Positions 30,437 through 51,992 of a stretch of 54,068 bases of DNA are shown piece after piece. Source of the stretch: a virus (Duplodnaviria > Caudoviricetes); IMG/VR virus record IMGVR_UViG_3300044825_001528, positions 1-54,068 of that record. One strand, given 5' to 3'. A program made the position numbers and the translations under genes. A model generated the notes under the pieces. That model worked only from the letters and a program-made list of their open reading frames with translations. It was not told where the DNA came from and made no database searches. Each line of letters opens with the position of its first letter. The first letter of the stretch is position 1.

Positions 30437-31069
30437 ATGTCGCGATATCTACGAGAAAACTTGACTTTCGACCGCGCTAGTATGGTGGTCGAAAGCGTCA
30501 AGGAAGGAGAAATGAAGGCTCTATACATGAAGGGCATCTTCATTCAGGGTGGGGTAAAGAACGCCAATGAGCGTGTTTATCCCGTTTCCGAGATTGAGCG
30601 TGCTGTAGAAGATCTCAATACTCAAATCAGAGAAGGTCATAGTATTCTGGGCGAAGTAGATCATCCAGACGATCTTAAAATCAACTTGGATCGTGTCAGT
30701 CACATGATTAACAACATGTGGATGGATGGTCCAAATGGTTATGGAAAACTGAAAATATTACCGACTCCAATGGGCCAACTGGTATCTACTATGTTGGAAA
30801 GTGGAGTCAAACTAGGTGTGAGTAGTCGCGGAAGCGGTAACGTAGACGATACTACTGGCAAAGTAAGTGACTTTGAAATCGTCACAGTGGACATTGTAGC
30901 TCAACCAAGTGCCCCAAACGCTTATCCAAAAGCAATATACGAAGGACTAATGAACATGCGTCATGGTCATCGTGTATTGGATAATCTAAAAGGTGCTGGT
31001 TCAGATGCAAAGGTCCAAAAATTCTTGAAAGAAGAAGTAATTCGTCTTATCAAGGATTTGAAAATCTAA
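30437..31069 (+). CDS. gp21: Prohead core protease
   Basis: GIFIQGGVKNANERVYP, GEVDHP, GVSSRGSG, DIVAQPSAPNAY. Confidence 0.95.
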   Translation: MSRYLRENLTFDRASMVVESVKEGEMKALYMKGIFIQGGVKNANERVYPVSEIERAVEDLNTQIREGHSILGEVDHPDDLKINLDRVSHMINNMWMDGPNGYGKLKILPTPMGQLVSTMLESGVKLGVSSRGSGNVDDTTGKVSDFEIVTVDIVAQPSAPNAYPKAIYEGLMNMRHGHRVLDNLKGAGSDAKVQKFLKEEVIRLIKDLKI

Positions 31070-38000: not shown

Positions 38001-39096
38001 TGATAGCACTGGTGTCCCATTCGTAATGACCAACACTGCTCTAGGCGGTAACAGGCTACGATTGATAGGCACTGATCTAACCGCAGCGGGGAACGCAAGT
38101 GCTCTAGACATCACCAATGTAACCAATTGCTTCATCAACGATATCAACACAAGCAGCGCCAAGGTGGGTGGCAGTGCTTGGAAGATAGCTGATTCGGTAA
38201 TGACCATAGGAACCGTCCAACTAGTTGGAAGTGGAACTAACGGTCCCGCCAATCTGCTAGAGGTCACAGGCGCTACCAGCATAGTGTCTGTGGGCTATAG
38301 TAGCTTCACAAGCGGCACTACCAATGGCAACGGCATCTATATCGGTGCTGGTGCTCGTGTGATTGCTGGTGCCAACTTCTACAACATCCCGCTGGGCACT
38401 GGCTACAGCGTGACTGGTGCTGCTGGCGGCATCTATGTTCGCGGTGGCAATCAGGCTGTACCTGGTACTAACAATGGCGTGAACCCATTGTTGTCACTGT
38501 CAACATTCAATATGAACACGCATATCGCTGCTAGTGATATAGTTGGCGCTGTTGCTATTGCCAATGGAGGCACTGGGCAGACAAGTAAGACAGCAGCGTT
38601 CGACGCACTGGCTCCTACTACCACTGCTGGCGACTTGATCTACTACAACGGTACCGACAATGTTCGTCTACCCGCTGGCAGCAACAATCAAGTACTGTCT
38701 CTAAATGGTACTACTCCAACTTGGGTCAACGGCGTTAGGAAAACCACTGGTAGCTGGACAGTGACACCAGGGTCTAGCACATATAGCTTCAGTGTTCCAG
38801 ACAACAATACCTATACGATGTGGGTCAGAGGAAACATTCCCAATGGCATCATCGTGTGGAACGCTACCGTTTCGCTGTCCAATGCCAATGTTCCAGCGAT
38901 AGGCACGCAGTACGGTTGGTATTATCTAGCCGGAAATCAGTTAGTGCTAACATCAATGCCCGATCAGATAATAGGCACGGCAGGTAGCATTAGCACGGCA
39001 ACTGTAGCTACTACCACAGCAAACACCTTCACATTCGGCATAACAAACAACAGTGGGTCTAACTGTACCATTGAATATGGATACATAACACTATGA
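35047..39096 (+). CDS. Multi-domain tail fibre / receptor-binding protein
   Basis: INVGELPNDGSGDPLRLAFQKINDNF (T4 gp9/gp10-type attachment motif), VAVGDxGTI propeller repeats, repeated GGTGxTT fibre modules, YVSKGGND...GSITKPFLTI beta-helix start. Confidence 0.8.
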   Translation: MTQQIINVGELPNDGSGDPLRLAFQKINDNFTQVFTAPGAAGTDGSFQYRSLNSLTAAAYYDTLWVLGGITQWWTSVDAVTCEPLTTYTPTSAVKQIYAAATGFIAVGADSMLLTSGDGLIWTARSPADPSNFNGVAQYDGGRYVIVGDAGAIQTSLDAITWTSVVSGTSQHLNSVAVSSIGWVAVGDNGTIVFSSNGTTWVLVTPTGTSENLNSVVYDGSYYVAVGDGGTILRSADGTVWVPIVTTITENLTSVTTGVFDGDTIDVAVGDSGAIYTSTDFSTTWEQPLGYTRVASNLTSVCRYNNLFLAVGLNGTVLTSPDAVDWSNVTIAGVMVGSTQLTYNDLTEQLTVDSTTISITGNTDINTDSTKSLNIGYTDVSNVNVRSSTTINGRLRLPVYNANPNTAHSVGGDIFYNANTGFLEWFDSVSGLWKVVSDGNPDPSNTLINGNAVFTLESSGNTSVPGSMIPTVANSYDLGSVDSPWRSLYVSNNTIYIDSVPLSVSGNTLTVAGIPVITSDTTDPVITSNTVTSAGLVLTTNTGIQFSDNTVLTSTDSIGTVKSVDISGGNTGLTTADGPITSTGTITLEGTLNIEHGGTGQTTAQLAFDALAPTTNTGDIIYNDGSNNTRLPIGEDDQVLKVVGGVPSWANNQTANTGDVTFSTNVVQGTGYELGLSPGTGFTDDYQYFRVRGGDVPEHLHFDTTNSNAYDLYVGDDQKFFKLSKDGPAIIQSLDANTATGYTWTFGIDGKLTLPVDGDIVNSNGSSVLSVGTVTSIDISGGDTGLLTVGGPITSNGTITIGGTLNVANGGTGATTVAAAFTALAPSQANNAGKLLTTNGTTASWSSLGITNEIYVSKGGNDSTADGSITKPFLTISAAINYLNTNYPVANNSGTQFVIVVGPGLYSENVNINRLLTHLWAYEGKLKTTRISGTVTVTSAVDYQGIFQNVVSLNNLFIDNTTNNALEVTGSIPISIDINNCALYTDSTGVPFVMTNTALGGNRLRLIGTDLTAAGNASALDITNVTNCFINDINTSSAKVGGSAWKIADSVMTIGTVQLVGSGTNGPANLLEVTGATSIVSVGYSSFTSGTTNGNGIYIGAGARVIAGANFYNIPLGTGYSVTGAAGGIYVRGGNQAVPGTNNGVNPLLSLSTFNMNTHIAASDIVGAVAIANGGTGQTSKTAAFDALAPTTTAGDLIYYNGTDNVRLPAGSNNQVLSLNGTTPTWVNGVRKTTGSWTVTPGSSTYSFSVPDNNTYTMWVRGNIPNGIIVWNATVSLSNANVPAIGTQYGWYYLAGNQLVLTSMPDQIIGTAGSISTATVATTTANTFTFGITNNSGSNCTIEYGYITL

Positions 39097-39461
39097 GAGC
39101 ACGAGAGTTTATCAGTGAAGTAAAGAAAACCCAGATGCGTAAGGATCACGAGAACGCTACTACTGGTCGTCATACATTTACTGATGCTCCAGCCGATAGA
39201 TTTTATGTGCTGGGTAAAGTAATGAGTGCTGCTGCTTGTGCTAATGGTTACGATCCACTGAATGTCCCGGCAGAAACTTGGGTAGGAAAACGAAACACTG
39301 CTCATCCATACACAGATGTTGAAGACAAGATGATGAAGCAAGCATATAAAGCGGTAGGAGTCAAATGGAAGGATCACAATCACGGTGATTTACGCAGTAT
39401 GGAGCCAGAAAGCACCAATAGCACTAGTCCAATAAAGCCATTCAAGGGATACAAACGATGA
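39093..39461 (+). CDS. Hypothetical protein with MRAREFISE leader, ending SPIKPFKGYKR
   Basis: ATGA overlaps at both ends; paralogous to the last module of 41088..41972. Confidence 0.78.
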   Translation: MRAREFISEVKKTQMRKDHENATTGRHTFTDAPADRFYVLGKVMSAAACANGYDPLNVPAETWVGKRNTAHPYTDVEDKMMKQAYKAVGVKWKDHNHGDLRSMEPESTNSTSPIKPFKGYKR

Positions 39462-40318
39462 AAATCACGGAGATACTCACTGAAGCTCCGATTACTGATT
39501 ATGTGCCCATTGGAGATTTCAGCAAGGACCTACAGTTTAGAGGACCAGATGTTAAGTTAGCGGTTCACCCAACTAACATCCAAAAGGCTCGTGATTTTTT
39601 CTCTAACTCACCCTACAACTTCAGATTCTTCGTTGTTAATAGTCCCAGAGTGCGACAGCATCGCGAAACTGGCGAAGCGAGTCCTGAAAAAATCCGCGAA
39701 ATATTTCCCAAACAGGCAGATGCTATACTCAAAAATCACGAGAATGCCATCACCGTGATATACATTGGTAACTACGGTCAAGACAAAGTGATGTTCACGC
39801 CGTGGACTATGGCACATAGAGTAGGTCACGCAATCGTGGCAAGTGGAAGATATGATGCGCGAAAATTCAATAACAGCGCCTGGTATAAGCTAGAACAAGA
39901 TTTTCTAGAGAGTATGGGTCTGATATTACAGAACTTCTATGGACTTCAACTTGAGCGTAGAGCATACGGGTCATATTCAGTGTGGGGTAAAAATCGTCAG
40001 CATTTCAACGCACTATTCAACAAAATAGGAACTCAACGCAGCAGTCGTGAAAATCAGATTACCAGACCCTATGAGTTCTTATACGAACTATTCGCGCAAT
40101 TCATTCAGACAGGTGATGTAAAGTTTAATCCACTGCCTATCACCGCATCTTACGGTCGCAAAGCTTGGGGCAGACCAACCAACTATATTGGTTTAAAACA
40201 GCAATATAGAACTCCTGAATTTGATAGAGAAGCTAACCTGAATAAAGTTCGCGAGCAACTAATTAGAAACTTTAATGCGGTATTACAGGACGCTATGGGT
40301 AAAATTTATCTGATGTAA
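39458..40318 (+). CDS. Hypothetical protein with MKITEILTE leader and degenerate zincin-like HRxGH motif
   Basis: TPWTMAHRVGHA with downstream YELFAQ. Confidence 0.7.
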   Translation: MKITEILTEAPITDYVPIGDFSKDLQFRGPDVKLAVHPTNIQKARDFFSNSPYNFRFFVVNSPRVRQHRETGEASPEKIREIFPKQADAILKNHENAITVIYIGNYGQDKVMFTPWTMAHRVGHAIVASGRYDARKFNNSAWYKLEQDFLESMGLILQNFYGLQLERRAYGSYSVWGKNRQHFNALFNKIGTQRSSRENQITRPYEFLYELFAQFIQTGDVKFNPLPITASYGRKAWGRPTNYIGLKQQYRTPEFDREANLNKVREQLIRNFNAVLQDAMGKIYLM

Positions 40319-40322
40319 TGCT

Positions 40323-41078
40323 ATGAGATATCGCGAACTAATCACTGATGCTAGAAAGAATAAAAACGATCCGAAATATCCATTTCACGCTGGATGGGAT
40401 GAGTTGAATAGAATTAAACACAGAGCCAAAATGGTGGGAGATGATTTAGCTGATACATATCAGTTATTCATACCTAAAACTAATCTAGCGGGAATGACCA
40501 GACGAGAAAGAAGATTATCCAATCTTGCCAACAGATATGCCTATGATGAACGGGGTAATTTGCGACCACGATATAAAGATTGGGAAGAGAAAGGGCCAAT
40601 TAGCGAAGCGATACCAATATTGCCGACTGGAAAACCTAATATAGAAGCAGGCGGTAATAAACCAGGTCGAGCATTTTGGACAAGCACTGCGTATAAACAG
40701 AATGGTAGTTGGACTAGCGAATGGAATGAATGGGTAAAGGGTAATATGTCGCACTGGTCTAGTCCCATTGGATATCTGTATCGTGTTCGACCAGGCGCGC
40801 TATTATTGCCGTTTGATAATACATACGATGCCGAAAATATTCAACACGCATTCGCTGATTTAGAAGTTGCCAAACATCCTGAATTTGGTGGATTCGGCTA
40901 CACTACTGATTTTCCTTGGAATCAGATAGTCAAGCATTTTGACGGAGTTCATCACTATAATAGCGGTCGCCGTTTTGATGATTTCACCTATGGCTGGGAT
41001 GTTGAAAGCACTGCGTGGTTTAACACCGACTTCTTACAATTTGCTGGCGAAGTTAAGGTAAATACTTCTAAAGATTGA
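40323..41078 (+). CDS. Two-module hypothetical protein with MRYRELITD leader
   Basis: Basic N-module, PISE-A junction, then a KPGRAFWTST...FDGVH...GWDVES module. Confidence 0.7.
   Translation: MRYRELITDARKNKNDPKYPFHAGWDELNRIKHRAKMVGDDLADTYQLFIPKTNLAGMTRRERRLSNLANRYAYDERGNLRPRYKDWEEKGPISEAIPILPTGKPNIEAGGNKPGRAFWTSTAYKQNGSWTSEWNEWVKGNMSHWSSPIGYLYRVRPGALLLPFDNTYDAENIQHAFADLEVAKHPEFGGFGYTTDFPWNQIVKHFDGVHHYNSGRRFDDFTYGWDVESTAWFNTDFLQFAGEVKVNTSKD
41059..41064 (+). promoter_or_regulatory. Late promoter (TAAATA) for 41088
   Basis: GGTAAATA within the end of the upstream gene, 23 nt before the ATG. Confidence 0.5.
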
Positions 41079-41087
41079 GAATATAAT

Positions 41088-41972
41088 ATGAGAGCCAGAC
41101 AACTACAAGAAGATACCACAACGCTAAAACAGATATACGGCGACGAATATCCCGATGATTATGAGCGTATTTGGCTATATGTGACCTTGCGTGACTTTAA
41201 TATTCCCTTTACAATATTCACTATTCGTCCGCGTGAATTAGAACAACGACTAATATCTCAATACAGAGTAGAGGATTTAGATGAATTAACTGATAAATTG
41301 AAACCAGAACAACGACAGATACTCAAGCGATATATTCGCGATCCTAGATTATCAGACAGTATTATCATCGTTCACAACGATATGATAATTGACGGTAATC
41401 ATCGTGCTTTTGCCGCCGCTCTAAAGGGAGTTCCCGTTAGAGCGATTGATTTGGCAGAAACTGACGCAGAGCAATTGGACGAGAAGTGGAGCAAGAGTTA
41501 TAAGCGTAGTATTGATTGTAATAATCCCAAAGGATTTAGTCAGCGCGCTCATTGCGCCGCTCGCAAAGCTCGTCAGACTGGCAAAAAGACCAAGAGTGCC
41601 AGCGTTAATGAGGGCAGAACAGGAACATTAGCACCAGATGTGGCACGAGCATTACCCGCGGTATATGCTCTACCAGAGTTGCTCAATCAGGATCCCTATC
41701 TACAATACAGATTTGGTGTTGCTATTGCTGGTGCTAAAGGAGCCAAAAAGAGAGCAGAAGACGGAGTTCCTGATTATGGTAAAGAAAGTGCTTGGGGAGA
41801 GAACGAGATTATCGTAAGCTTTGATCCCGACATAGAAACATACATAGATGATGCACTAAAAGCAATGGGTATGAGTGGAAAGAAACTTATAAGCACCAGA
41901 AAGAGCGAAGAGGCAGAGGATGTTTCCAAAAACAGTCCAATCAAGCCTTTCAAGGGTTATCGGCGTCGTTAA
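41088..41972 (+). CDS. Three-module protein: ParB/Srx-like domain, small basic Cys module, paralog of 39093
   Basis: IIDGNHRAFAA (ParB-N-like); QLDE-KWSKSYKRSIDCNNPKGFSQRAHC; SVNE-GRTG...SPIKPFKGYRRR. Confidence 0.72.
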   Translation: MRARQLQEDTTTLKQIYGDEYPDDYERIWLYVTLRDFNIPFTIFTIRPRELEQRLISQYRVEDLDELTDKLKPEQRQILKRYIRDPRLSDSIIIVHNDMIIDGNHRAFAAALKGVPVRAIDLAETDAEQLDEKWSKSYKRSIDCNNPKGFSQRAHCAARKARQTGKKTKSASVNEGRTGTLAPDVARALPAVYALPELLNQDPYLQYRFGVAIAGAKGAKKRAEDGVPDYGKESAWGENEIIVSFDPDIETYIDDALKAMGMSGKKLISTRKSEEAEDVSKNSPIKPFKGYRRR

Positions 41973-43537
41973 TTGAATACTATGGTTCCACTTCCTGTAA
42001 AAGTATAAATTCTATATCCTCCTGACACTGTTATTGTTGGGCTTCCGGTAGTAGTAGCAGCAGAAATAGAGTCAGAAATGCGAAGTATTACAATACCACT
42101 ACCACCGCCTCCTCCAATACTGCTTCCGGAACCTCTTCCTCCACCACCGCCCCCGCTATTTGCTATCCCGGAAGTAGGATTAGAATCTCCAGCGGTTCCA
42201 CCTCCACCACCGCCACTACCACCACTCCCGGGAGAAGACCCTGTTATACATCCCCCTCCACCACCGCCCCCATATATCGCAGGAGATCCAGAAATTGAAG
42301 TCAATAATCCGCTACCACCTGCTCCCCCGACCCCATATCCAGAATTCGCTCCTACGATAGATGCTCCACCGCCTCCACCTCCGCTTCCGCCCACAGAATC
42401 TCTAACGCTAGACCCTCCATTATTTCCTTGTCCTAATATCCCGCTACCACCGCCACCTCCGTAGCCTCCTCCTCCACCGCTTCCTCCGTTGCTTCCATTG
42501 GACAAATTTTGTGGAAGATTTCCACTTCCACCCCCACCCCCAACAGATATTAAAATAGAAAAACGACTATCAGCGCCGTTCAATCCCCCAGAAACTGTGG
42601 CGGCTCCTCCGGCTCCGACCACTATATTGTAAGATTGCGCGGTTAATAATGAAACTGATCCGGCTCTAACTCCTCCGCCTCCTCCGCCTCCGCCAGCAGT
42701 CGTTCCTCCTCCGCCTCCTCCAGCAACAATTACATAATCAACTCCAATTGTCGGCGCTGGCCCAGCATTATCAGGAAAGGACGACCCCGGAGCCCAAACT
42801 ATTCTTACTGCTCCGCTCGCTCCAGCCGAAGACCCTGGATTATCTCCAATTACTACACCACCTCCCCCTCCTCCACCATATAACCCTCCAGGTCCTATTG
42901 GCTGTCCATCACCGCCCGGAGTAATACTACCATATAATCCAGTTCCCCCACCTCCGCCAGAGAAACTTGAAGTTATTATGCTTGATCCTGATCCACTACC
43001 TCCAGGAACTCCATAGCCACCCGCACCACCTCCACCACCCTGTCCATATCCTTGTGGTGTTGAACCACCGACGCCTCCACCTCCCCCATTACCGTCTCCA
43101 GCTCCTCCACTGGGTGCACCAAAAACGGAATATCCTCCAGATCCTCCATTATAACCAACATAACCAGACAATCCGCTAGCAACTCCTCCGGGGTTGGGCA
43201 CTACATTGCCATTGTTACCTCCTCCTCCTTGTACAATTGTTGTAGATCCATCTTTAACAAAGCTGGCAGTAGCAGCCCCGCCAACTTGAACAGACAAACT
43301 CTGTCCTGGAATAACTGGATAATTATTGTAATAAGCTAATGCTCCACCACTACCACCAGCCCAAGGATTTCCTGCCACCCCTCCAAATCCAGTACCGCCC
43401 CCACCTATAGCAACCATAGATACATTTGCTACATTACTTGGAACAATAAAAGTATAGCTTCCTGGAATATTATAGACAATATCTTGTCCTGTTGGAGCCT
43501 CTGATGGATTTCTTCTTCCTATTGGGTTTAAAAACAT
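41969..43537 (-). CDS. Glycine-rich virion/fibre-associated protein with two Gly-rich domains
   Basis: PGSYTFIVPSNVANVSMVAIGGGG...GASGAVRIVW and VDYVIVAGGGGGG...GGSGIVILR...YRIYTFTGSG; AAGGA SD and minus-strand TAAATA upstream. Confidence 0.82.
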   Translation of the reverse strand: MFLNPIGRRNPSEAPTGQDIVYNIPGSYTFIVPSNVANVSMVAIGGGGTGFGGVAGNPWAGGSGGALAYYNNYPVIPGQSLSVQVGGAATASFVKDGSTTIVQGGGGNNGNVVPNPGGVASGLSGYVGYNGGSGGYSVFGAPSGGAGDGNGGGGGVGGSTPQGYGQGGGGGAGGYGVPGGSGSGSSIITSSFSGGGGGTGLYGSITPGGDGQPIGPGGLYGGGGGGGVVIGDNPGSSAGASGAVRIVWAPGSSFPDNAGPAPTIGVDYVIVAGGGGGGTTAGGGGGGGGVRAGSVSLLTAQSYNIVVGAGGAATVSGGLNGADSRFSILISVGGGGGSGNLPQNLSNGSNGGSGGGGGYGGGGGSGILGQGNNGGSSVRDSVGGSGGGGGGASIVGANSGYGVGGAGGSGLLTSISGSPAIYGGGGGGGCITGSSPGSGGSGGGGGGTAGDSNPTSGIANSGGGGGGRGSGSSIGGGGGSGIVILRISDSISAATTTGSPTITVSGGYRIYTFTGSGTIVFN

Positions 43538-43560
43538 AGCCGTGTTTCCTTAATATTGTC

Positions 43561-43572
43561 TAAATATATTTA
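43561..43572. promoter_or_regulatory. Perfect palindrome TAAATATATTTA, i.e. two opposed late promoter boxes
   Basis: Plus TAAATA 43561-66 faces ATG 43572; minus TAAATA 43567-72 faces ATG 43537. Confidence 0.68.
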
Positions 43573-43763
43573 TGAATGAATTAGAAACTATATTACATTT
43601 GGCTGGGGTCAAAAAACAGGACAATAGTTATGGCAAGAGTATTACGCTGACTTCCAGCGATAAAGCTAGAATAATGCGTGAGAATAATATTAGACCAGGA
43701 ACTGATGCTTGGTTCAAGTTATGGTTCTCAAAACCCTACTTAACGGGAGAGAAACCAGTATGA
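43572..43763 (+). CDS. Small protein coupled to terminase
   Basis: MNELETILHLAGV...NIRPGTDAWFKLWF; ATGA overlap with terminase. Confidence 0.7.
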   Translation: MNELETILHLAGVKKQDNSYGKSITLTSSDKARIMRENNIRPGTDAWFKLWFSKPYLTGEKPV

Positions 43764-45328
43764 GCAACGATAATCAGTTTATTAGGTCTAAAGGCCAGAT
43801 AATAGAGCTTACTACTGAACAAATAGATGAAGTCATAAAATGTGCTGATCCTGATACTGGATATCACTACTTTATGACCAACTATTTCTATATTCAGCAT
43901 CCTACGCTTGGACAAACACTATACGATCCCTATGCCTATCAAGTTGATCTGATCAAGAACTATCACGAAAACAGATTTAGCGTATCACTGCTTGGGCGTC
44001 AGCTAGGTAAAACTACCAGTGCTGCTGGTTATCTACTATGGTTTGCAATGTTCCAATACGATAAGACCATATTGATTGCAGCACACCAATATAGTGGCGC
44101 TCAAGAGATTATGCAGCGTATTAGATACGCATATGAAATGTGCCCAATGTGGTTGAAACCAGGAGTAGAAGCATATAATCAGGGCAATATTGACTTTGAG
44201 AATAAGAGTAGAATAGTAGCCAGAGCAACTACAGAAAAAACTGGTCGTGGTATGTCTCTATCACTATTATATTTGGACGAGTTTGCGTTTGTAAGACCAA
44301 CTATAGCAAAAGAGTTCTGGACAGCAATATCACCAACGCTAGCTACTGGTGGTAAATGTATTATCACCAGCACTCCCAATAGTGATGAGGATCAGTTTGC
44401 TCAAATCTGGAAACAAGCTAATAAGAAAATAGATGAGTGGGGGAATCCTACCAAAGTTGGCAAGAATGGATTCAGCCCCTATAAGGCAATATGGAATCAG
44501 CATCCAGACCGAGATGAAGCCTGGGCTAATGAAGAGCGATCAAAGATTGGTGAAGAAAGATTTCTACGCGAACATTGCTGTGAGTTCATAATCTATGAAG
44601 AAACATTGATTAATGGTATTACATTAAGCGATTTAGAAGGTATTAATCCCATTAGCAAAACTGGTCAAGTTCGTTGGTATAAAAAACCCACTAAAGGTCA
44701 CATATATGTAGTGGCATTAGATCCTAGTTTGGGAACGGGCGGAGATAATGCTGCTATACAAGTGTGGGAAGCAGATACCACCACTCAAGTAGCAGAATGG
44801 GCACATAATAGAACAACAATACCAGAGCAGATCAAGCTATTAGCAAATATCAATAAGCAGATATTAGAAGAAACTAATGAGCCAAACAATCTGTATTACT
44901 CACTTGAAAACAACACCATTGGCGAAGCAGCACTAATCAGTTTGTTTGAGTATGGTGAAGAGAATATCAAGGGTTATATGTTAAGTGAGAATAAGTCCGC
45001 TGGTAATGCTCGTAGATTTCGTAGAGGATTCAATACTACTCACAAGAATAAACTATCAAGCTGTGCAAAATTGAAACATCTGATAGAAAGCAAAAAAATG
45101 AAGATAGCCAGTAGTAATCTTATCAGCGAACTGAAAACTTTTGTTGCAAGCGGTGGTAGCTATGCTGCTAAACAGGGAGAAACTGATGACTTGATTATGG
45201 CTACTCTACTTGCGGTCAGAATGTTGCAGCATTTACAAAGTTATAATGTTGATTTAGATCAGCATATTAGAGATCATAATGAGATCATTGAGCCATTGCC
45301 GTTCATTATGACAATGAGTGTAGCATAA
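43760..45328 (+). CDS. gp17: Terminase large subunit
   Basis: GRQLGKTT Walker A, LLYLDEFAFV Walker B, ITSTPN, FLREHCCEF, ALDPSLGTGGD, ENN, DDLIMA; start at ATG 43760. Confidence 0.95.
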   Translation: MSNDNQFIRSKGQIIELTTEQIDEVIKCADPDTGYHYFMTNYFYIQHPTLGQTLYDPYAYQVDLIKNYHENRFSVSLLGRQLGKTTSAAGYLLWFAMFQYDKTILIAAHQYSGAQEIMQRIRYAYEMCPMWLKPGVEAYNQGNIDFENKSRIVARATTEKTGRGMSLSLLYLDEFAFVRPTIAKEFWTAISPTLATGGKCIITSTPNSDEDQFAQIWKQANKKIDEWGNPTKVGKNGFSPYKAIWNQHPDRDEAWANEERSKIGEERFLREHCCEFIIYEETLINGITLSDLEGINPISKTGQVRWYKKPTKGHIYVVALDPSLGTGGDNAAIQVWEADTTTQVAEWAHNRTTIPEQIKLLANINKQILEETNEPNNLYYSLENNTIGEAALISLFEYGEENIKGYMLSENKSAGNARRFRRGFNTTHKNKLSSCAKLKHLIESKKMKIASSNLISELKTFVASGGSYAAKQGETDDLIMATLLAVRMLQHLQSYNVDLDQHIRDHNEIIEPLPFIMTMSVA

Positions 45329-45331
45329 ATA
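45326..45331 (+). promoter_or_regulatory. Late promoter (TAAATA) overlapping the terminase stop
   Basis: CATAAATA-7 nt-ATG 45339. Confidence 0.65.
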
Positions 45332-45338
45332 ATAGATT

Positions 45339-46379
45339 ATGCGTATATCTGAAATACTTAATGAAGTTGATCGTAGAGGGTTTTTGAAGAAATTAGCAGG
45401 AGGTGCTGCGGCTGGAGCGGCAGCAGTTGGTGCTCTAAAAGCACCCTGGGAAAAATTCTTCAAAGGTGACGAGGTATCAGATGATTATGGTAAAGAAGCA
45501 GAACCAGTAAATATTCCCAGACAGGCAATGCTAATCAATTTAGCTAGAAGACAAATGGAAAATCTGCGATCAATGAATATTATTAATTCGGCTACATTAC
45601 AGCAGTATTCAGAAAGAGCATTAATTAGAGCATTATTATCGGCTAAACCATATGCTTCAAATCAAGAAATAGCACAATTTTTGGCACAATGTAAGGGAGA
45701 AACTGGAGCTTTTACTAGTCTAGACGAGAGATTAGAATGGAAAACTCCCGAGAGAATGTTTAGGCATTTCACAAAGAAACTCAATCCAAATATCAAGAAT
45801 GTGGATAATATTAGTCCTGAAGAACGACAGATCGGTATGGAAAAAGCACAAGAGCTAATATCAAACCCAGAAGATTTTAAATCACCCTATCTTGCCAATT
45901 TCATCTATGCTAATGTCATTGGAAACGGCCCAGAAGATACTGGTGATGGTTGGAATTACAGAGGAAAAGGATTCTTGCATTTGACTGGAAAAGCTAATTA
46001 TAGAGATATTGGCGGAGAATCATTGGTTGCTAATCCAGATTTATTGCTTACTGATATGAATTGGGCGATATTTACAGCAGTTAATTATTGGCTAAAAAGA
46101 GTAGCGTCTAAATCTAATGATTGGGCAGATACAGCAAAAATTACTAAACTAGTTAATCCAAACACAGGTGCCGATGCAATAAGCAAAAGAGATCGTTATT
46201 TCAAAGAATATATGAAGATAATAGGTTCTGTTGCTGATGAAATAAGAAAAGAACTACACATTAGACAACCACATCTTCCAAAAAATCGTCCGCATCCAAG
46301 CACAGAACGCCCAACTCTTAAGACTCCTCCAAAGACTAAAACTAAAAAACCAGCTATTAAAAAGCCAACAAGGAAGTAG
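45339..46379 (+). CDS. GH19-family peptidoglycan hydrolase with twin-arginine-like N-terminal signal
   Basis: AQFLAQCKGETG, ANFIYANVIGNG, GDGWNYRGKGFLHLTGKANY, NPDLL, ITKLVN; N-terminus MRISEILNE-VDRRGFLKKLAGGAAAGAAAVGAL. Confidence 0.85.
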   Translation: MRISEILNEVDRRGFLKKLAGGAAAGAAAVGALKAPWEKFFKGDEVSDDYGKEAEPVNIPRQAMLINLARRQMENLRSMNIINSATLQQYSERALIRALLSAKPYASNQEIAQFLAQCKGETGAFTSLDERLEWKTPERMFRHFTKKLNPNIKNVDNISPEERQIGMEKAQELISNPEDFKSPYLANFIYANVIGNGPEDTGDGWNYRGKGFLHLTGKANYRDIGGESLVANPDLLLTDMNWAIFTAVNYWLKRVASKSNDWADTAKITKLVNPNTGADAISKRDRYFKEYMKIIGSVADEIRKELHIRQPHLPKNRPHPSTERPTLKTPPKTKTKKPAIKKPTRK

Positions 46380-46401
46380 AATAACAATAGGCTCTATTTG
46401 A

Positions 46402-46407
46402 TAAATA
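46402..46407 (+). promoter_or_regulatory. Late promoter (TAAATA)
   Basis: GATAAATA 25 nt before ATG 46433. Confidence 0.68.
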
Positions 46408-46432
46408 GTAGATAATATGGATTTTTATCACT

Positions 46433-47908
46433 ATGCCAAAATCAGCCGATACTATATTGCCAGAGCTTTATGATCTATTGAAGACCAAGGGATTTAATCC
46501 CAAATCATTTAAATCTGGTAAAAAATCTGTAGTTCCAGGTGAAGCTACACTGATTAGCTTTCGTTTCAAAGATGATGATAAGGAGTATGGAACTAGTCAT
46601 GTGGCTATTGACAATCTGCGTCAGCTTATTCTGTTTTATAATAGAGCAGCAATGCGTGATGCTAAAACAGCCTGGACTAGCTTTATCAAAGAACTTAAGA
46701 ATTGGGGAATGCGTAGAGGAATTCAAAAATTTGATCTAGATACTGTTGATAATCTTCAAGATTATTTGGAGCGTAGAGAAAGTTCAGAAAGATTGGACGA
46801 AAGTTATCACGGCACAAAATATACTAGCTATAGTGACAAAACTCCCAAAACAGTTAAGCTTATAATCAAACATAATAAGGCTCTTGAAGAAACTGATAAA
46901 CGCTACAGACATGTAGATAAGATATTCGTTGAGAATGAACAGGGTGAAAGATTTATATTGCCAACCAAGAAACCCAGTGTGGGTTATGTTTATGCTAGAT
47001 TGATAGCAGAGGGTGGTAATCCCTATGATGAGCGTGGTAAGCATATAGCTGAAATCAGTGAAGATATATCACGATTGGCTGGTTTTGTTCGCGCAACCAA
47101 ATCAAAGCAATTCAATGAGAGCATTCAATCATTAGTCAGTGAGGCAACAGAACAATACTATAAACTGCGTGAGACATTACATAAATTGCGTGGCTCACGA
47201 GGGTTTCGTGAGTATTTTGAAAACTGGCAGCCTACTCTAATGGAAAATGATACTGATATTGATAGACTTAAATCAGCATTTGAAAACTCAAGCATTGATC
47301 CAAGAATAGAACAAGCACTGCCAACATTGAGTAAGTTCAACATTAATGTCTCTGAAATGACCGAAAGCTATCAATTTGAGGATTGGGCAAATGATTTCTT
47401 GAATGAGGAACTAAAGCCAAATCTACAGGGTCAGGTTGATGAACTGATAGAACTATTAGGAGCGGATAGTGATCCACTACCATTAGGTCCTGATGCTACT
47501 AATGTGCTTGGAGTATTAGAGAACTTGATTGATGACGACAAATTGAGTCAGAGATTAATCAGAGCGGCTGAAGCAGATCCAAATAACGATGCTCGCCCAC
47601 TTATTATAGGATGGATGAGTGAGCACAGTGATGACGATATGTATAGAGAGGTTTTGGACAGTGTAAACCCAGAAGAGGAAGAATCAATGCCTCAAGAAAC
47701 TCCTCCAGCAGAACCTTCTGATGCAAATAACAATGCTGCTGATGCTGCTGCACCCATTGAACAACCTAATATAGAAATGCCACCAGAACAAGAAGAACCT
47801 GCACCTGAATTGCCTGGATTACCTGGATCTGCACCTAAACAACAAAAACCACTTAAAGAATCAGCAGATTTACAGCGCCTTCGTGTATTGAGTGGATTGA
47901 TCAAATAA
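46433..47908 (+). CDS. Head-associated/internal protein of unknown function
   Basis: GTKYTSY...KLIIKH...IFVENEQGERF...GGNPYD; many x-x-E-S sites; ends LQRLRVLSGLIK like the scaffold terminus. Confidence 0.7.
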   Translation: MPKSADTILPELYDLLKTKGFNPKSFKSGKKSVVPGEATLISFRFKDDDKEYGTSHVAIDNLRQLILFYNRAAMRDAKTAWTSFIKELKNWGMRRGIQKFDLDTVDNLQDYLERRESSERLDESYHGTKYTSYSDKTPKTVKLIIKHNKALEETDKRYRHVDKIFVENEQGERFILPTKKPSVGYVYARLIAEGGNPYDERGKHIAEISEDISRLAGFVRATKSKQFNESIQSLVSEATEQYYKLRETLHKLRGSRGFREYFENWQPTLMENDTDIDRLKSAFENSSIDPRIEQALPTLSKFNINVSEMTESYQFEDWANDFLNEELKPNLQGQVDELIELLGADSDPLPLGPDATNVLGVLENLIDDDKLSQRLIRAAEADPNNDARPLIIGWMSEHSDDDMYREVLDSVNPEEEESMPQETPPAEPSDANNNAADAAAPIEQPNIEMPPEQEEPAPELPGLPGSAPKQQKPLKESADLQRLRVLSGLIK

Positions 47909-47918
47909 GGAAGTAGTA

Positions 47919-49700
47919 ATGAAACAGTTAAAAGAGTTTGAAAACTGGACTGATAGCATAATCAAATCAACTGTATTTGAGAAGAAAGACACACGCGACG
48001 AGCGAGCCATTGAGCGTCAGCGTGATATAGTTTATAAAGCAAAGCAGGCATTTCCTGAGTATCCAGAATCTCAAGCTATTGAATTGTTCCTAGCCGATAA
48101 GCTATCTGACATTGAGCAGCGTGATTTTGAGCAGAACAAAGTCATCAATTTGCAGCGTAGAGAGAATGATAAACTTAAAGGTAATCTACAGGATCTACAA
48201 TCAGAGATTCAGAATATTGAAGCGGGCGGTCAGGAAACTGATCGAGAAATAGCAAGACTCAAACAATTGAGCGGTAAGCTTCAAACTGATGTAGAACAGC
48301 GTAGAGTTGGTGGTCGCGAAGTAAATGAACTATTAGCACAAGTTGAACAACTTAAAAACAAGCCTGGGGTTACTCCAGAACAATATAAAGACATCAAAGA
48401 TAAAGTAGAGGATTTTTCTAAACAAAAAGTCAATCCAGAAGAATTCAAAAAGTTTGAGAATCAACTGAAGACGCTTGCTGCTAGCGAAGCAATAGATAAA
48501 GAACAAATATCCAATTTACAATCAGCGATAGATTCTGTAACCAGAAGACAGGAAAAAATAGGCGATATCAGTGATGTTGCTGGCAAACTTCGTGATTTGG
48601 AGTCTAAACAAAGTGAAATTGAGCAAGTAGCAACTGCCAATAAAGAATTGGTTGGTGATTTAAATCAACGACTAGAAACTCTCGGTGCTGCTGATCGTGC
48701 TGATATTGAGCGTGCATCAGAATTGCTGCGAGATTTACAGGGGACTAAACAAGAGCTTGATGCTAAACAACAAGAACTGTCAGACTTCGAACGCAATCTA
48801 CAGACTCGTGTGGATAAAGAAATTGAACAAGAAAAAGCTACAACCAAGAAAAGAATGCAGGATTATTTTCGTCGTGCTAAAAAACGCAGCGCACAAGCAG
48901 CCACTAAAATCAATGCTCTTGTTGGAAAAGATGCTGGTATAGAAAAAATTCGCGAATTAGGTAGAACTATTACTGATCTTCAAAACAAAGATTTTGAAGA
49001 CATGACAATTTATCCTTCGATAGACGATATATCGTTAGAATTGAGTGGATTGGAAGGATGGCAAGAACTGACAGAGAGAAGAAGAAAGAGAATAGAAGCC
49101 GAAATAAAAAAATTGAAAAGCACTGTTGATTTTCTTCTTAAGAGATTAGTACAGCCGGATCTTCCTAATATTCCTTCTCCTGATCTTACATCGGAATTAG
49201 AACTTTCTCCTGAGCAAAAAAAAGAAAAGGATTATCAAGAATATGTACAACAAGCTAAAGATATAATGAAAAAAAATAACCTTGAACTTGATCTTAAAGA
49301 GGATGCATCTCAGTATGTAAATATAGAACCTGAATATTCAAAGATTATTGAATATTTAAAAGATAAATGGCTCAAATCATCAGATGGTTATCGCGAGACT
49401 GCTTTACTAGCCAATAAATTTCTTGATTTATCTTATCTTGATAGAATTATATATTATTATCTAAAAAAATCCAAAATCGATATTACTTCTATTAATAATG
49501 CCGACTTAGAAAAAGAATTTACTGAAATTTATCTTCCTTTAATCATAAAAAAAACAAATCAAAAAGCAAATCAAAAAGCAAATCAAAAAAAAGATTATTT
49601 GAATCAACCAACTAATCCGATAGACAAAGGATTATCAGAACTGGAAGAATCATTGGACAGAATCATAGGTAAAGATGTAGCAACTTGGATAAAACGATGA
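47919..49700 (+). CDS. Long coiled-coil hypothetical protein
   Basis: AAGGA SD; heptad-rich E/K/Q/L composition; AT-rich C-terminal segment. Confidence 0.75.
   Translation: MKQLKEFENWTDSIIKSTVFEKKDTRDERAIERQRDIVYKAKQAFPEYPESQAIELFLADKLSDIEQRDFEQNKVINLQRRENDKLKGNLQDLQSEIQNIEAGGQETDREIARLKQLSGKLQTDVEQRRVGGREVNELLAQVEQLKNKPGVTPEQYKDIKDKVEDFSKQKVNPEEFKKFENQLKTLAASEAIDKEQISNLQSAIDSVTRRQEKIGDISDVAGKLRDLESKQSEIEQVATANKELVGDLNQRLETLGAADRADIERASELLRDLQGTKQELDAKQQELSDFERNLQTRVDKEIEQEKATTKKRMQDYFRRAKKRSAQAATKINALVGKDAGIEKIRELGRTITDLQNKDFEDMTIYPSIDDISLELSGLEGWQELTERRRKRIEAEIKKLKSTVDFLLKRLVQPDLPNIPSPDLTSELELSPEQKKEKDYQEYVQQAKDIMKKNNLELDLKEDASQYVNIEPEYSKIIEYLKDKWLKSSDGYRETALLANKFLDLSYLDRIIYYYLKKSKIDITSINNADLEKEFTEIYLPLIIKKTNQKANQKANQKKDYLNQPTNPIDKGLSELEESLDRIIGKDVATWIKR
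49555..49589 (+). repeat. 12-bp tandem repeat (CAAATCAAAAAG x about 3) encoding NQKA
   Basis: Directly visible; in frame. Confidence 0.85.
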
Positions 49701-50095
49701 AGATCAAACATATCATAAGAGAAAACACTGTGCTTGATCGTAAGCCAACAGTGAAGCCAGAGGAAATAGAACTCAATGAACCAGGCGGGTTCAATATAGT
49801 AATCCTGAATGATAATGTGACTCCATATCAGGTGGTAGTAGAGGCTATTATGCATGCAGTAGGACTTTCTGAACACGAAGCATTCAGTAGAATGATGCAG
49901 GCACATCAAATAGGATGGGGAGTAATTGCAACCTATGCCAGCAGAGATATTGCTGAAACTGTAGCCAACAAACTAGAGCAGCATGCTCGTGCCAATACTA
50001 ACTGGGATCATTATAGACCAATGATACCTCCACGCGGTTACTACAGACCCTGGCCACTAACAGCAGAAGTTATGGAGGCTGGTGATGCGTCTTGA
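49697..50095 (+). CDS. clpS: ClpS-like N-degron adaptor with MKIKHIIRE leader
   Basis: FNIVILNDNVTPYQVVVEAI...AFSRMMQAHQIGWGVIATYASRDIAET; ATGA overlap at 49697. Confidence 0.85.
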   Translation: MKIKHIIRENTVLDRKPTVKPEEIELNEPGGFNIVILNDNVTPYQVVVEAIMHAVGLSEHEAFSRMMQAHQIGWGVIATYASRDIAETVANKLEQHARANTNWDHYRPMIPPRGYYRPWPLTAEVMEAGDAS

Positions 50096-51992
50096 TGAGT
50101 TTGTGAACAGAAGATTCAGCAATACTCTATTAGAAGCCAAAGGTCATCTAGATCATCCTGAGGATCTGGTCTTTATTGGCGGTCGTGATGGTATGTTGCG
50201 AGCTATTCAGGCTATACAGCAAACAGCACAAACACCCAAGAACATTACCATAAAGTGGGACGGTTATCCAGCACTGATATTTGGTCGTGGGCCTGATGGT
50301 AAGTTCACGATTATGGACAAGCATATGTTCAACAAACAGGACAGTGCTGTTCGCCAATTGCATAGTCCGGAAGAATGGATGAGATATGAAAGTGCTCGCG
50401 GAGACAAGCAACGCACTGGTCTAATGAACATAATCAACAATATTTGGACAGGATTAGAAGCAGCAAGCACCAAGCCTGGATATTATTGGGGAGATCTATT
50501 GTTCAGCAGTCCTCTACAGGAACAAAACGGACTCTATAGATTCAGAGCCAATCCAAATGGTATTACTTATACAGTTGATGTTGATAGTCCAATTGGGCGA
50601 TTATTATCAAACAAAGTAGCTGGAATAGCAGTGCATCAGTATCTAGATCCAAATGCTATGTCTACTGACGAGGCCAAATCATTGGATGGCACAGTAGGGA
50701 ATCTAAAAAATGCAGGCAATGTTGCTATAGTTCCCAGTGCCATGCCGCAAACTCCTAGAGTAGTTATACCACAGGCTATGTTTACGCGAGCACAAGAATT
50801 GGTCAATAGATATGCCGACGATATAGATAAGTTCTTCAACAATGCTCCACAGGCCAAAAGTGCCTTTACTGGATTATTCACTACCTATATCAATAACAAG
50901 ATAGTCAGTGGAGATCTCAAGAACTTGGTCGCAGACTTCTATCGTTGGGTAGATAGTAGACCAATGACCGAGCGTATGCGTGCTAAAATCAACGAGTATC
51001 TAAAGAATAATCGCAGTGCTATCGTTGCCATATTCACAGTATGGGCAGCAATCTACAACTTGAAAAACAGTGTGGTCAAACAGTTGGACAGAGCAAGCAG
51101 AACCAGTCCAGTCAAGGGGTATCTACAAAGTGGCACACAAAGTCAAGAAGGATTCGTAAGTCAGGGATTGAAGTTTGTCAACAGATTAGGATTTGCTCGT
51201 CAGAATCTTGCCGTCAAACAACAGCAGCCACTATCAGAAGCCATTGATAACAAGCAAGTATTGATCATCTATCCAGGAGGATTTCATCCATTTCATCTTG
51301 GACATGCCAGTGTGTTTGATCACTTGGCCAAAAAGTTTCCTGATGGTGAAGTATTCGTAGCAGCAACCGATACTAAAACAGAACGCCCATTTGGATTTGA
51401 TGACAAGAAGTTCTTGGCCAATCAGAGTGGCGTTCCGAATGACAGATTTGTGCAGGTCAAAAGTCCCTATCGTAGTGAAGAGATAACCAAAAACTATGAT
51501 CCAAATAATACGATACTAGTGTTTGCAGTCAGTGAAAAGGATCGTGACAGAATCGGATTCAAGCCAAAAGCAGATGGATCTCCAAGCTACTTTCAGCCAT
51601 ACAAGGATGATGTTAGTGCCCCAATGAAGCAACACGGATACATCTATGTGGTTCCAAAGATTGATTTTGAGATTGGTGGCAAAGTGATTGACAGCGCCAG
51701 CAAGATTAGACAGATGTATCAGAATGCTGATGATAGCAAACGCAAGCAAATCATAGCTGATCTGTATCCACTTGGTCGTGCTCCAAAACGCATCAAGAGC
51801 ATATTGGATTCGGTACTGGGCCATTCCACATCATCAGATGTCAAAGAAGCCGATAATCCAAACTATTTTGGTGCCAGCAGTATGAGTCCTATTCCAGGCA
51901 CTCCACAAAGTCTACAGCCACAACCAACCATCAAAAAGAAAGCTCGTGAACGCGCCGAACAGGCAGCACTGCAACGCTTTATGGGTCACTAA
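50085..51992 (+). CDS. Fusion of a ligase-like KxDG domain (DUF6267-like) and an HxGH cytidylyl/adenylyltransferase-like domain
   Basis: HLDHPEDL, TIKWDGYPA, WGDLLF, QEGFV, LKFVNR; after PLSE-A comes IYPGGFHPFHLGH, KDRDR, SASKIR. Confidence 0.75.
   Translation: MRLDEFVNRRFSNTLLEAKGHLDHPEDLVFIGGRDGMLRAIQAIQQTAQTPKNITIKWDGYPALIFGRGPDGKFTIMDKHMFNKQDSAVRQLHSPEEWMRYESARGDKQRTGLMNIINNIWTGLEAASTKPGYYWGDLLFSSPLQEQNGLYRFRANPNGITYTVDVDSPIGRLLSNKVAGIAVHQYLDPNAMSTDEAKSLDGTVGNLKNAGNVAIVPSAMPQTPRVVIPQAMFTRAQELVNRYADDIDKFFNNAPQAKSAFTGLFTTYINNKIVSGDLKNLVADFYRWVDSRPMTERMRAKINEYLKNNRSAIVAIFTVWAAIYNLKNSVVKQLDRASRTSPVKGYLQSGTQSQEGFVSQGLKFVNRLGFARQNLAVKQQQPLSEAIDNKQVLIIYPGGFHPFHLGHASVFDHLAKKFPDGEVFVAATDTKTERPFGFDDKKFLANQSGVPNDRFVQVKSPYRSEEITKNYDPNNTILVFAVSEKDRDRIGFKPKADGSPSYFQPYKDDVSAPMKQHGYIYVVPKIDFEIGGKVIDSASKIRQMYQNADDSKRKQIIADLYPLGRAPKRIKSILDSVLGHSTSSDVKEADNPNYFGASSMSPIPGTPQSLQPQPTIKKKARERAEQAALQRFMGH

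Follow-up and report, generated by a model that had tools for sequence, protein, structure and literature searches.

Modules joined at prohead-protease-type sites in proteins of an uncultured T4-type phage: candidate head-packaged cargo polyproteins

The 54,068-nt contig IMGVR_UViG_3300044825_001528, analysed over its whole length and hereafter termed the window, carries a T4-type morphogenetic core recognised by both Pfam and PHROG, together with a group of genes (39093, 39458, 40323, 41088, 47919 and 50082) whose products raise a simple question: are they ordinary multidomain proteins, or strings of separable modules that the head protease of the phage would release inside the capsid? A first-pass annotation had proposed the latter for 40323, 41088, 47919 and 50082, on the grounds that domain boundaries in these proteins coincide with (I/L/V)-x-E sites of the type cut by prohead proteases. 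The analysis reported here partly supported that interpretation: module shuffling, leaders and an S77 protease were all found, whereas the halves of 40323 generally co-occur and the split proposed for 47919 is weak.

The explanation that best accommodates the data, to which a probability of roughly 0.6 was assigned, is that 39093, 39458, 40323, 41088 and probably also 50082 encode cargo that is loaded into the prohead and then cut, with packaging, cleavage and delivery each inferred from sequence. Loading would be directed by a short leader at the N-terminus, of the type that targets T4 proteins to the capsid (common form M-R/K-x-x-E-F-I-x-E), which the phage's own gp21-type S77 protease would remove by cutting after hydrophobic-x-Glu (hxE). 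The same enzyme would also separate the modules of multi-module proteins; 41088 would thereby yield three modules, one ParB/sulfiredoxin (Srx)-like, one small, basic and Cys-containing, and one 39093-like, and 50082 would yield a tail in addition to its ligase-like and HxGH nucleotidyltransferase modules. Once released, the pieces would remain inside the head until they entered the host together with the DNA. As each module would possess its own site at its N-terminal edge, the genes could be fused, split and reshuffled with processing retained.

Shuffled modules of the 41088 protein

Every (I/L/V)-x-E site named in the first-pass annotation was found at its given place in the window proteins. 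The number of such sites proved unremarkable (vide infra), and the claim therefore rests solely on their position relative to independently defined module borders, which for both 41088 and 50082 were set by the points at which standalone relatives begin and end.

A phmmer search with 41088 against 1.84 billion representative proteins (E ≤ 1e-3) returned 2319 matches, and the best 150 of these relatives, ranging in length from 75 to 1406 amino acids, were analysed; all module counts given below for 41088 refer to that set. Module A only was present in 75 of these proteins, module B only in 24 and module C only in 45, A plus B were combined in three, B plus C in one, and two were left unassigned. 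Modules A and C were found together in none of the 150, and the modules occurred alone or in some other combination in 148. Module A stood alone in 14 instances, and was otherwise placed N-terminally (20), internally (23) or C-terminally (21); 27 of the 46 instances of module C were standalone and 18 were C-terminal.

Internal junctions were then scored for the presence of [ILVFMY]xE within positions −6 to +1 of each aligned module start, 500 random draws from the same proteins serving as the reference. The motif was present at 68 of the 85 internal junctions (A, 32/46; B, 21/21; C, 15/18), as compared with approximately 14 expected in all. The means for random positions were 7.9, 3.7 and 2.8 for A, B and C respectively, and not one of the 500 draws reached the observed counts. 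Control motifs assayed at the same 85 junctions were clearly less frequent (hxD 11, hxQ 4, hxK 14, hxN 13, hxS 8, hxT 5). Of the 68 hxE junctions, 66 had L, V, I or M at P3, and the residue at P1′ was mostly S, D, A, G or K; the upstream contexts of the 85 junctions were all different, with variable residues at P2 and P4. Module B was preceded by hxE in 27 of its 28 instances, and the same motif stood at 54 of the 63 N-terminal module starts of the family. In standalone modules, the last three residues of the leader align with the internal hxE of the fused forms.

Module C exists as a separate 134-residue gene with its own leader, MRAKEFIIE, in the closely related IMG/VR contigs L007 and L008, the preceding gene in each being a 127-residue homologue of 39093. 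The same two contigs encode proteins of 619 (L007, 7735-9594) and 629 residues (L008, 7762-9651) with a common leader, MKITQILSE, and a common C-terminal half but different N-terminal modules, with Q(D/G)V(A/T/S)E at the joints of the swapped modules. In Synechococcus phage Bellamy (gp122) the Cys module stands as a 51-residue protein starting MKSFKQFQE↓SW (the arrow marks the bond following the motif). It is located behind an internal KTFEEFRE↓SW in SSM2_108 of S-SM2, where a leader and an N-terminal part come first, and follows DVKE↓GW inside a 665-residue protein of DSL-LC02. In the cyanophage records concerned it lies among tail-fibre-like, TerS and TerL genes, and the window copy is just upstream of TerL.

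The paralogy of module C with 39093, as claimed in the first-pass annotation, was confirmed by profile comparison of 39093 plus two homologues with module C (hhalign 99.1%, E 4.7e-19, 121 columns), having not been evident from BLASTP of 39093 against 41088, in which only the C-terminal 22-39 residues aligned. The label 'ParB-like' for module A is reasonable at the level of fold, as judged by VIA, but membership of the family was not demonstrated by any Pfam match. The top ten VIA matches to the AlphaFold2 (AF2) model of the module (predicted local distance difference test, pLDDT, 91.5) were all of ParB/Srx type (ParB-N, Osa, KorB, Spo0J and sulfiredoxin), with modest Z values of 3.2-5.1 and root-mean-square deviations of 3.0-5.8 over 56-84 aligned residues, and the best Foldseek rows, weak at E 0.2-2, were ParB-N, Noc and Srx. 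The conserved DGNHR motif is one that we take to be typical of the ParB/sulfiredoxin superfamily. No ParB-type Pfam match was recorded among 24 members (E ≤ 0.1), no ParB chain was retrieved by the profile from PDB sequences, and a search of Pfam and PDB sequences with 41088 itself yielded no usable family. A whole-protein alignment of 71 sequences misaligned module A (17-21% identity) and was set aside.

A second small Cys module, CW(D/K)GYK...KKKGGK.VPNC, was observed to recur in cyanophage proteins and in IMG/VR relatives (Table 1), often followed by KE↓; one of its carriers, SSZBM1_139, is listed in a virion proteome.

The 50082 fusion and the 40323 and 47919 proteins

Residues 19-381 of 50082 correspond to Pfam DUF6267 (E 1e-40; 140.8 bits against a cut-off of 27), within which KWDG (K57, D59, G60) was invariant in 34 sequences; KxDG is presumably the lysine motif of ligases and nucleotidyltransferases. 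The AF2 model of this domain had a pLDDT of approximately 90, and its top 20 VIA matches were all ATP-dependent RNA or DNA ligases (Z 5.2-7.5, 161-211 residues aligned); Foldseek with the model of the whole protein gave unrelated rows and nothing clear. The HxGH domain matched CTP_transf_like at E 0.0042 (17.7 bits, under the 21-bit cut-off) and PPAT chains at E 0.06-0.8. A tblastn match ran into the cytidylyltransferase gene of P-TIM40 and P-RSM6, and the sequence FGRFNPPHAGHG was seen in a cyanophage homologue of this domain.

In P-TIM40, P-RSM6 and S-SZBM1, the ligase-like and transferase parts are separate adjacent genes, which in the first two phages share one frame by annotated coordinates with only a stop codon between them; the PLSE linker site of the window protein corresponds to the stop and start codons separating these cyanophage genes. 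Among 80 IMG/VR loci, six contained the full fusion, 72 the ligase-like gene alone, and two were cut by contig ends. The standalone ligase-like genes end within a few residues of window residue 377-384. A second IMG/VR scan added three fused forms, two of which were read, bringing the fused relatives read to eight.

All three sites of 50082 were retained in each of these eight relatives, the flanking residues varying. The leader site was TLLE, QLKE, FLFE or LLLE before A(K/A)GH, as in the leaders MRAYQFLFE↓AKGH and MLSRELILE↓N..LLLE↓AAGH, the linker site PLSE↓A, KLTE↓A, QVSE↓A or TLKE↓N, and the site ahead of the tail DVKE, DIKE, GLTE, GITE or GLNE before (A/S)DNP. One fused relative (L011, 616-2847) contains about 105 extra residues placed exactly between GLTE↓F and DIKE↓A, before the tail. 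The cyanophage ligase-like proteins start directly with AKNTHLEHLED, the N-terminus expected for 50082 after a cut at TLLE↓AKGH, and in the cyanophage transferases the N-terminus reads MRFLDFIKE↓A, MITFHVFITE↓A or MRFRQFIIE↓A. Standalone DUF6267 proteins of the contigs L017-L089 were observed to possess an N-terminal extension of 20-30 residues (MNLSESLALL...) with an hxE end before (A/D)KGHLDHPED, and in these contigs the gene next to DUF6267 encodes about 125 amino acids starting MAQFTRVNGD.

Published virion proteomes bear on the transferase half. That of CsCl-purified S-SZBM1 lists the cytidylyltransferase S-SZBM1_140, which by the present analysis bears a leader, together with its neighbour S-SZBM1_139, and the accessible text of that paper does not name the leaderless ligase-like S-SZBM1_141 (PMC9146016). 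According to the available portions of two further papers, the S-CREM2 virion proteome includes a cytidylyltransferase for which its authors suggest encapsidation (PMC10665884), and related transferases were detected in virions of other cyanophages (PMC9602691). In the parts of these three papers that could be consulted, the transferase is not linked to a leader or a protease (PMC9146016, PMC10665884, PMC9602691).

The check that modules should occur standalone or recombined in relatives, with breakpoints at the Glu sites, was clearly borne out for 41088, and in part for 50082, of which the ligase-like and transferase parts occur alone in relatives and the tail was never found alone. The general claim that boundaries coincide with sites likewise held for both of these proteins, but not for 40323, in which the site is conserved without being a shuffling breakpoint in most relatives, and was weakly supported for 47919.

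The 58 relatives of 40323 are mostly of equal length, 36 of them covering at least 89% of the protein. When these were considered together with the window protein, 50 of 59 sequences had an hxE no more than four residues from the position of PISE and 45 of 59 had one among the first 14 residues, the relatives' leaders being MRAKEFLSE, MISFKQFILE and similar. The 40323 site is a conserved feature, though the two halves usually travel together. The C-terminal domain (40608-41075) contains the invariant motifs FWTSTA and GWDVESTAW, and in one relative (P0210) it is fused to a NUDIX domain. An ADP-ribosyltransferase (ART) identity, for which there was an Atlas lead (AcrIF11 0.85, ART-PolyVal 0.84), was rejected as anything beyond a lead, as none of 36 members was ART in Pfam and no PDB chain was matched.

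For 47919, ten relatives were found, none of them in the IMG/VR scans, which yielded one relative of 40323. An N-terminal hxE↓F was recorded in ten of 11 sequences (the window protein included), the site at 461 in six of 11 and the C-terminal LSE/LEE in six to seven of ten; two relatives have MKLTKINE↓D or MKLTKVNE↓D at the place of the 461 site. The N-terminal 350 residues are conserved as a single unit, and within the window the protein resembles 29576 and the scaffold alone, through weak coiled-coil matches. The evidence for a split of 47919 is weak and leaves it unproven.

Leaders, processing enzyme and genomic setting

Sixty-four of the best 150 relatives of 41088 start with M[RK]xx.[FILVM]xx[ED], the commonest form being MRAREFITE. 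Of 368 Met positions in the window followed by an open frame of at least 50 amino acids, only seven fit this pattern, namely the starts of 39093, 39458, 40323, 41088 and 45339, the likely start of ClpS, and an internal stretch of 47919; the six gene starts all lie between 39 and 50 kb. T4 internal proteins (IP) IPII and IPIII start MKTYQEFIAE and IPI starts MKTFKEFTSTTTPVSTITE, and the EFIxE core of the IPII/IPIII capsid-targeting sequence (CTS) is common to leaders here, as in MRAREFITE. By eye and by pattern, without a statistical alignment score, the leaders of 39093, 39458, 40323, 41088 and 45339 resemble those of the T4 internal proteins. Those of 39093, 39458, 41088, 45339 and 50082 end in hydrophobic-x-Glu, and that of 40323 in Asp. 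In T4, as far as the sources were available, propeptides of 10-19 residues constitute the CTS, with targeting assigned to residues 4 and 7 and processing to residues 8 and 10 (PMC9026906, PMC3012670), and Asp at position 10 blocks processing but not targeting (PMC9026906).

The presumed processing enzyme is the gp21-type protease encoded within the head-gene cluster (Table 1). The statement in the first-pass annotation that its expected head substrates are peppered with sites was upheld for the gp22-like scaffold, which contains 25 [ILV]xE as compared with 11.0 expected (z 5.05, 500 shuffles) and was alone in being clearly enriched, and for the N-terminus of gp23, which has four.

The heptamer TAAATAC, which we take to resemble the T4 late promoter core, is not enriched in the window (10 copies between 10647 and 52024 as against 8.3 expected), but seven of the ten copies are followed within 45 nt by a start codon on the same strand, including those of gp20, 29576, 35047 and 41088. 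TAAATAY is likewise not enriched in number, and only placement before start codons is informative. The heptamer probably serves this phage as its late promoter core, and the window also contains a gene for a gp55-like late sigma factor (18702-19586).

Other window genes include baseplate genes, gp46/47-like SbcCD, gp32 and UvsX. The capsid protein shares 63-66% identity with its counterparts in jumbo phages of 285-470 kb and the head-gene DNA matches Rak2/121Q-type phages at about 67%, and on this basis the contig is read as a fragment of a large T4-related (jumbo-like) phage of an uncultured lineage.

Several further features were recorded. The product of 45339-46379 is a GH19/lysozyme-like protein with a Lys/Pro-rich tail, in which MRISEILNE↓V is followed by RRGFLKKLAGGAAAGAAAVGAL, a stretch that we take to resemble a twin-arginine export signal. 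The ClpS gene sits between 47919 and 50082, and cuts at QLKE↓F in the former and RLDE↓F in the latter would expose an N-terminal Phe, which belongs to the N-degron class read by ClpS; this proximity may be coincidence. An HNH homing-endonuclease gene (33619-34386) directly follows the major capsid gene. The interval from the cargo genes to TerL contains a minus-strand gene (41969-43537) for a 522-residue glycine-rich protein (Pfam Gly_rich_2, 8.8e-23), with a 128-residue proline-rich frame antisense to it.

Table 1. Coordinates of features of the window, with sites and residue numbers; the last row refers to other contigs
Feature	Coordinates	Strand	Basis or remark
Portal gp20	27453-29213		
Acidic 281-aa protein			Between portal gp20 and prohead protease
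gp21-type prohead serine protease, presumed processing enzyme	30437..31069	+	Pfam Peptidase_S77 1.8e-27; PHROG 207 head maturation protease 1.9e-60
gp22-like scaffold, [ILV]xE-dense	31087..32187	+	PHROG 10922; site count
Major capsid protein gp23	32215-33435		
gp23 N-terminal propeptide region, four sites: LLE↓S (7), LLE↓G (19), ILE↓N (34), LQE↓S (43)	32215..32343	+	Pfam Gp23 domain begins at residue 54
122-aa protein, leader MRAREFISE↓V, distant paralogue of module C	39093..39461	+	hhalign; standalone homologues in L007, L008
286-aa protein, leader MKITEILTE↓A, without known family	39458..40318	+	Pfam, PHROG
Leader of 40323, MRYRELITD	40323..40349	+	Last residue Asp, not Glu
PISE site of 40323, residues 92-95, between N-terminal part and conserved C-terminal domain	40596..40607	+	PISE↓A (95), sole [ILV]xE of the protein
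Leader of 41088, MRARQLQE	41088..41111	+	
Module A of 41088, residues 9-132, ParB/sulfiredoxin-like, DGNHR motif, ends with DLAE and QLDE sites	41112..41483	+	AF2, VIA; standalone relatives end here
Module B of 41088, residues 133-175, small basic Cys module WSKSYKRSIDCNNPKGFSQRAHC, ends SVNE	41484..41612	+	
Module C of 41088, residues 176-294, tail SPIKPFKGYRRR	41613..41969	+	
Sites of 41088: QLQE↓D (8), DLAE↓T (124), QLDE↓K (132), SVNE↓G (175)			
TerL	43709-45328		
Leader-like N-terminus MRISEILNE↓V of GH19-like lysozyme/chitinase protein	45339..45365	+	
Internal leader-like stretch MKKNNLELDLKE of 47919, residues 450-461, ahead of variable C-terminal part	49266..49301	+	
Sites of 47919: QLKE↓F (6), DLKE↓D (461), LSE/LEE (574/577)			
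ClpS homologue, leader-like start MKIKHIIRE↓N	49697..50095	+	Pfam ClpS 6.3e-16
Leader of 50082, residues 1-18, end TLLE↓AKGH	50082..50135	+	AF2 pLDDT 39-43
Ligase-like DUF6267 domain of 50082, KWDG motif	50136..51224	+	Pfam DUF6267 1e-40
PLSE linker site, ligase-like/transferase	51228..51239	+	
HxGH nucleotidyltransferase-like domain, GGFHPFHLGH, ends DVKE	51240..51848	+	
Conserved tail ADNPNYFG...FMGH	51849..51989	+	
Sites of 50082: TLLE↓A (18), PLSE↓A (386), DVKE↓A (589)			
Carriers of second Cys module	L001 4785-6152; L091 5831-7204; L005 1428-3425; L008 7762-9651		

Alternative explanations, known systems and significance

A number of observations weigh against head-packaged, processed cargo. 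The count of [ILV]xE sites was not above chance in the four proteins originally claimed (500 shuffles; observed versus expected: 40323, 1 vs 2.0; 41088, 6 vs 4.0; 47919, 9 vs 14.2; 50082, 7 vs 4.3), and TerL, included as a non-substrate control, contains 18 as compared with 8.4 expected. Raw counts, by which these four proteins were not separable from either chance or TerL, were consequently dropped as evidence. The motif is missing at 17 of the 85 internal junctions of 41088 relatives; the 85 are drawn from related proteins and are not independent events, and a conserved hxE could belong to the fold or linker of a module and be inherited with it. When 41088 was compared by tblastn with 50,697 phage records, the Cys module alone was matched, in cyanophages alone (17 records), and hence modules A and C are absent from the cultured relatives among those records. 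For TATAAATA, the exact T4 late promoter, there was no enrichment in the window (2 vs 3.16 expected). In the case of 40323, the two halves co-occur in most of the 58 relatives, and the leader ends in Asp, which on the available text blocks processing in T4 (PMC9026906).

Further points of the same kind concern 50082. The ligase-like gene is alone in 72 of the 80 loci, with an N-terminal extension that is longer and less CTS-like, and among the cyanophage counterparts the leader is found on the transferase half alone. The window gene lies between ClpS and gp32/UvsX, and all three cyanophage pairs adjoin gp41 and MazG, which are neighbours of replication type. The transferase half falls below pLDDT 50 in the AF2 model, and the two enzyme domains may pack together. 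As two of the three non-junction sites compared were also retained in relatives, conservation of the 50082 sites alone is not decisive.

The alternative that survives best applies to 50082 and 47919 only, is compatible with the cargo explanation for 39093-41972, and is somewhat unlikely, though it deserves serious consideration. By this account, 50082 is a plain fusion of neighbouring, coupled enzymes acting in the infected cell, and 47919 is a coiled-coil structural or scaffold-like protein and no polyprotein. The cyanophage arrangement is in keeping with such a fusion, given the adjacent, in-frame, separate genes beside gp41 and MazG in the three phages examined and the position of the window copy by gp32 and UvsX. 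So too, for 47919, are the depletion of sites (9 vs 14.2), the single N-terminal unit of 350 residues, the partial retention of its later sites (6/11 and 6-7/10) and the purely weak coiled-coil similarities within the window. It accounts less readily for the CTS-like leaders of the fused 50082 relatives, the retention of all three sites, the L011 insert lying exactly between two of them, the detection of a transferase homologue in virions, as reported in the accessible parts of the proteome papers (PMC9146016, PMC10665884, PMC9602691), and the N-terminal hxE↓F of 47919 retained in 10 of 11 sequences.

A second alternative, which we regard as improbable, is that the proteins are packaged but lose at most their N-terminal leader, the internal hxE being fossil leaders of once-separate genes and the proteins remaining whole and acting as polyvalent proteins. 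Fusion with a retained leader end is indeed visible on comparison of the internal KTFEEFRE↓SW of S-SM2 with the N-terminal MKSFKQFQE↓SW of Bellamy, 47919 carries the internal MKKNNLELDLKE, and the accessible text of the paper on polyvalent proteins cites proteins transferred or packaged unprocessed (PMC5512222). A fossil would, however, be expected to decay, and yet Glu is present at 68 of 85 junctions in 85 differing contexts with variable P2 and P4, and the three sites of 50082 persist in all fused relatives read despite their differing linkers.

Comparably improbable is the proposition that the proteins are of an ordinary cytoplasmic, multidomain kind, with a shared N-terminus and an hxE that are unrelated to the head and reflect, for example, a recombination hotspot, a linker, a helix cap or a preference at translation start. 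Site counts at chance level, with TerL higher, are what it would lead one to expect; no family annotation places any of modules A, B and C in virions, and in module B an hxE with W at +2 could form one helix face. By way of contrast, hxE is found ahead of five or more units that are unrelated to one another (DUF6267, the HxGH transferase and modules A, B and C), and a cap specific to one fold would not be shared among them. The leaders contain the EFIxE core of the T4 CTS, the cargo genes lie behind late-type promoter motifs and adjoin fibre and terminase genes, and a leader-bearing transferase homologue is present in purified virions whose leaderless neighbour is unlisted in the available text (PMC9146016). 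Finally, that sites and boundaries coincide by chance is scarcely credible, for although [ILV]xE is frequent (about four per 300 residues) and in-window counts are at expectation, no random draw reached the observed counts for any module, and control motifs were found at 4-14 of the 85 junctions as against 68 for hxE.

Under the cargo explanation, the closest known counterparts would be T4 IPI, IPII, IPIII and Alt, which are processed by gp21 and likewise combine a short N-terminal leader ending in hydrophobic-x-Glu, with its EFIxE core, and variable cargo behind it; T4-type protease, scaffold and capsid genes are all present in the window. The T4 internal proteins, however, are single-module proteins cut once, whereas several modules are found here per chain, with a site before each, the domains can be of enzyme size (about 360 residues for the ligase-like domain), and modules are shuffled among thousands of proteins. 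The window leader is also one residue shorter than the T4 leader.

Polyvalent proteins (Iyer et al. 2017, PMC5512222), as far as described in the accessible text, also join unrelated domains, including ParB-type domains, in one polypeptide encoded by late or virion genes, are thought to be co-injected with DNA, and have been proposed to undergo processing. In the window, 41088 and 50082 each join disparate domains, and a fibre-like gene and TerL are among the neighbours. The proposed processing of polyvalent proteins is by an embedded zincin-like metallopeptidase, as opposed to the head-protease motif at the joints and the T4-type leader found here, and the term 'prohead protease' occurs in the available text once, in the reference list (PMC5512222). 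Sequence-only searches (E ≤ 0.01) assigned no Pfam family, metallopeptidase included, to 39093, 39458, 40323 or 41088, and to 50082 DUF6267 and CTP_transf_like alone. The modules described here are also smaller than those of polyvalent proteins.

Many head proteins of phiKZ, 201phi2-1 and SPN3US are cut after Glu, often at several sites, by a gp21-related protease, and some fragments are ejected (PMC9026906). Their motif is S/A-x-E and cleavage serves mainly to remove propeptides; in the available text, neither shuffled cassettes with one site per module nor a T4-like CTS is described (PMC9026906). The NMNAT-like transferases and cytidylyltransferases of T4-like cyanophage virions are homologous to the HxGH domain of 50082, but there form a separate gene (three cyanophages), whereas in the window the domain is fused behind the ligase-like domain. 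A full-text search for 'capsid targeting' plus 'cyanophage' returned a T4 review only, and a literature search having most subscription journals outside its scope gave no description of such leaders or joints. What sets the system apart from both T4 internal proteins and polyvalent proteins is the combination of several modules in a chain, a single head-protease motif at each joint and a leader of T4 type.

If head-packaged, processed cargo is the correct explanation, it would provide a common account of a large body of unannotated phage proteins, the modules of 41088 alone having 2319 representative relatives, and would tie the polyvalent-protein idea to a defined protease and motif. A leader plus hxE joints would then constitute a simple sequence rule for predicting injected proteins in uncultured phages, and a natural design is suggested for loading several foreign proteins into T4-type heads. 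The chances appear evenly balanced that a general cargo grammar (leader, module, hxE, module and so forth) operates in T4-type and jumbo phages of uncultured aquatic lineages. Any module, from a basic peptide of 40 residues to a ligase-like enzyme of 360, could then be joined to others, separated or exchanged as a cassette, and would still undergo loading into the head and release by a single head protease; such a grammar would extend to thousands of unannotated protein families and would explain the NMNAT-like transferases of virion proteomes. Cargo that is loaded into the capsid, released by protease and delivered with the genome would be a likely place for the counter-defence and takeover functions of the first minute of infection, and the T4 capsid-targeting system, which serves a few single proteins, would be widened into a combinatorial system of cassettes.

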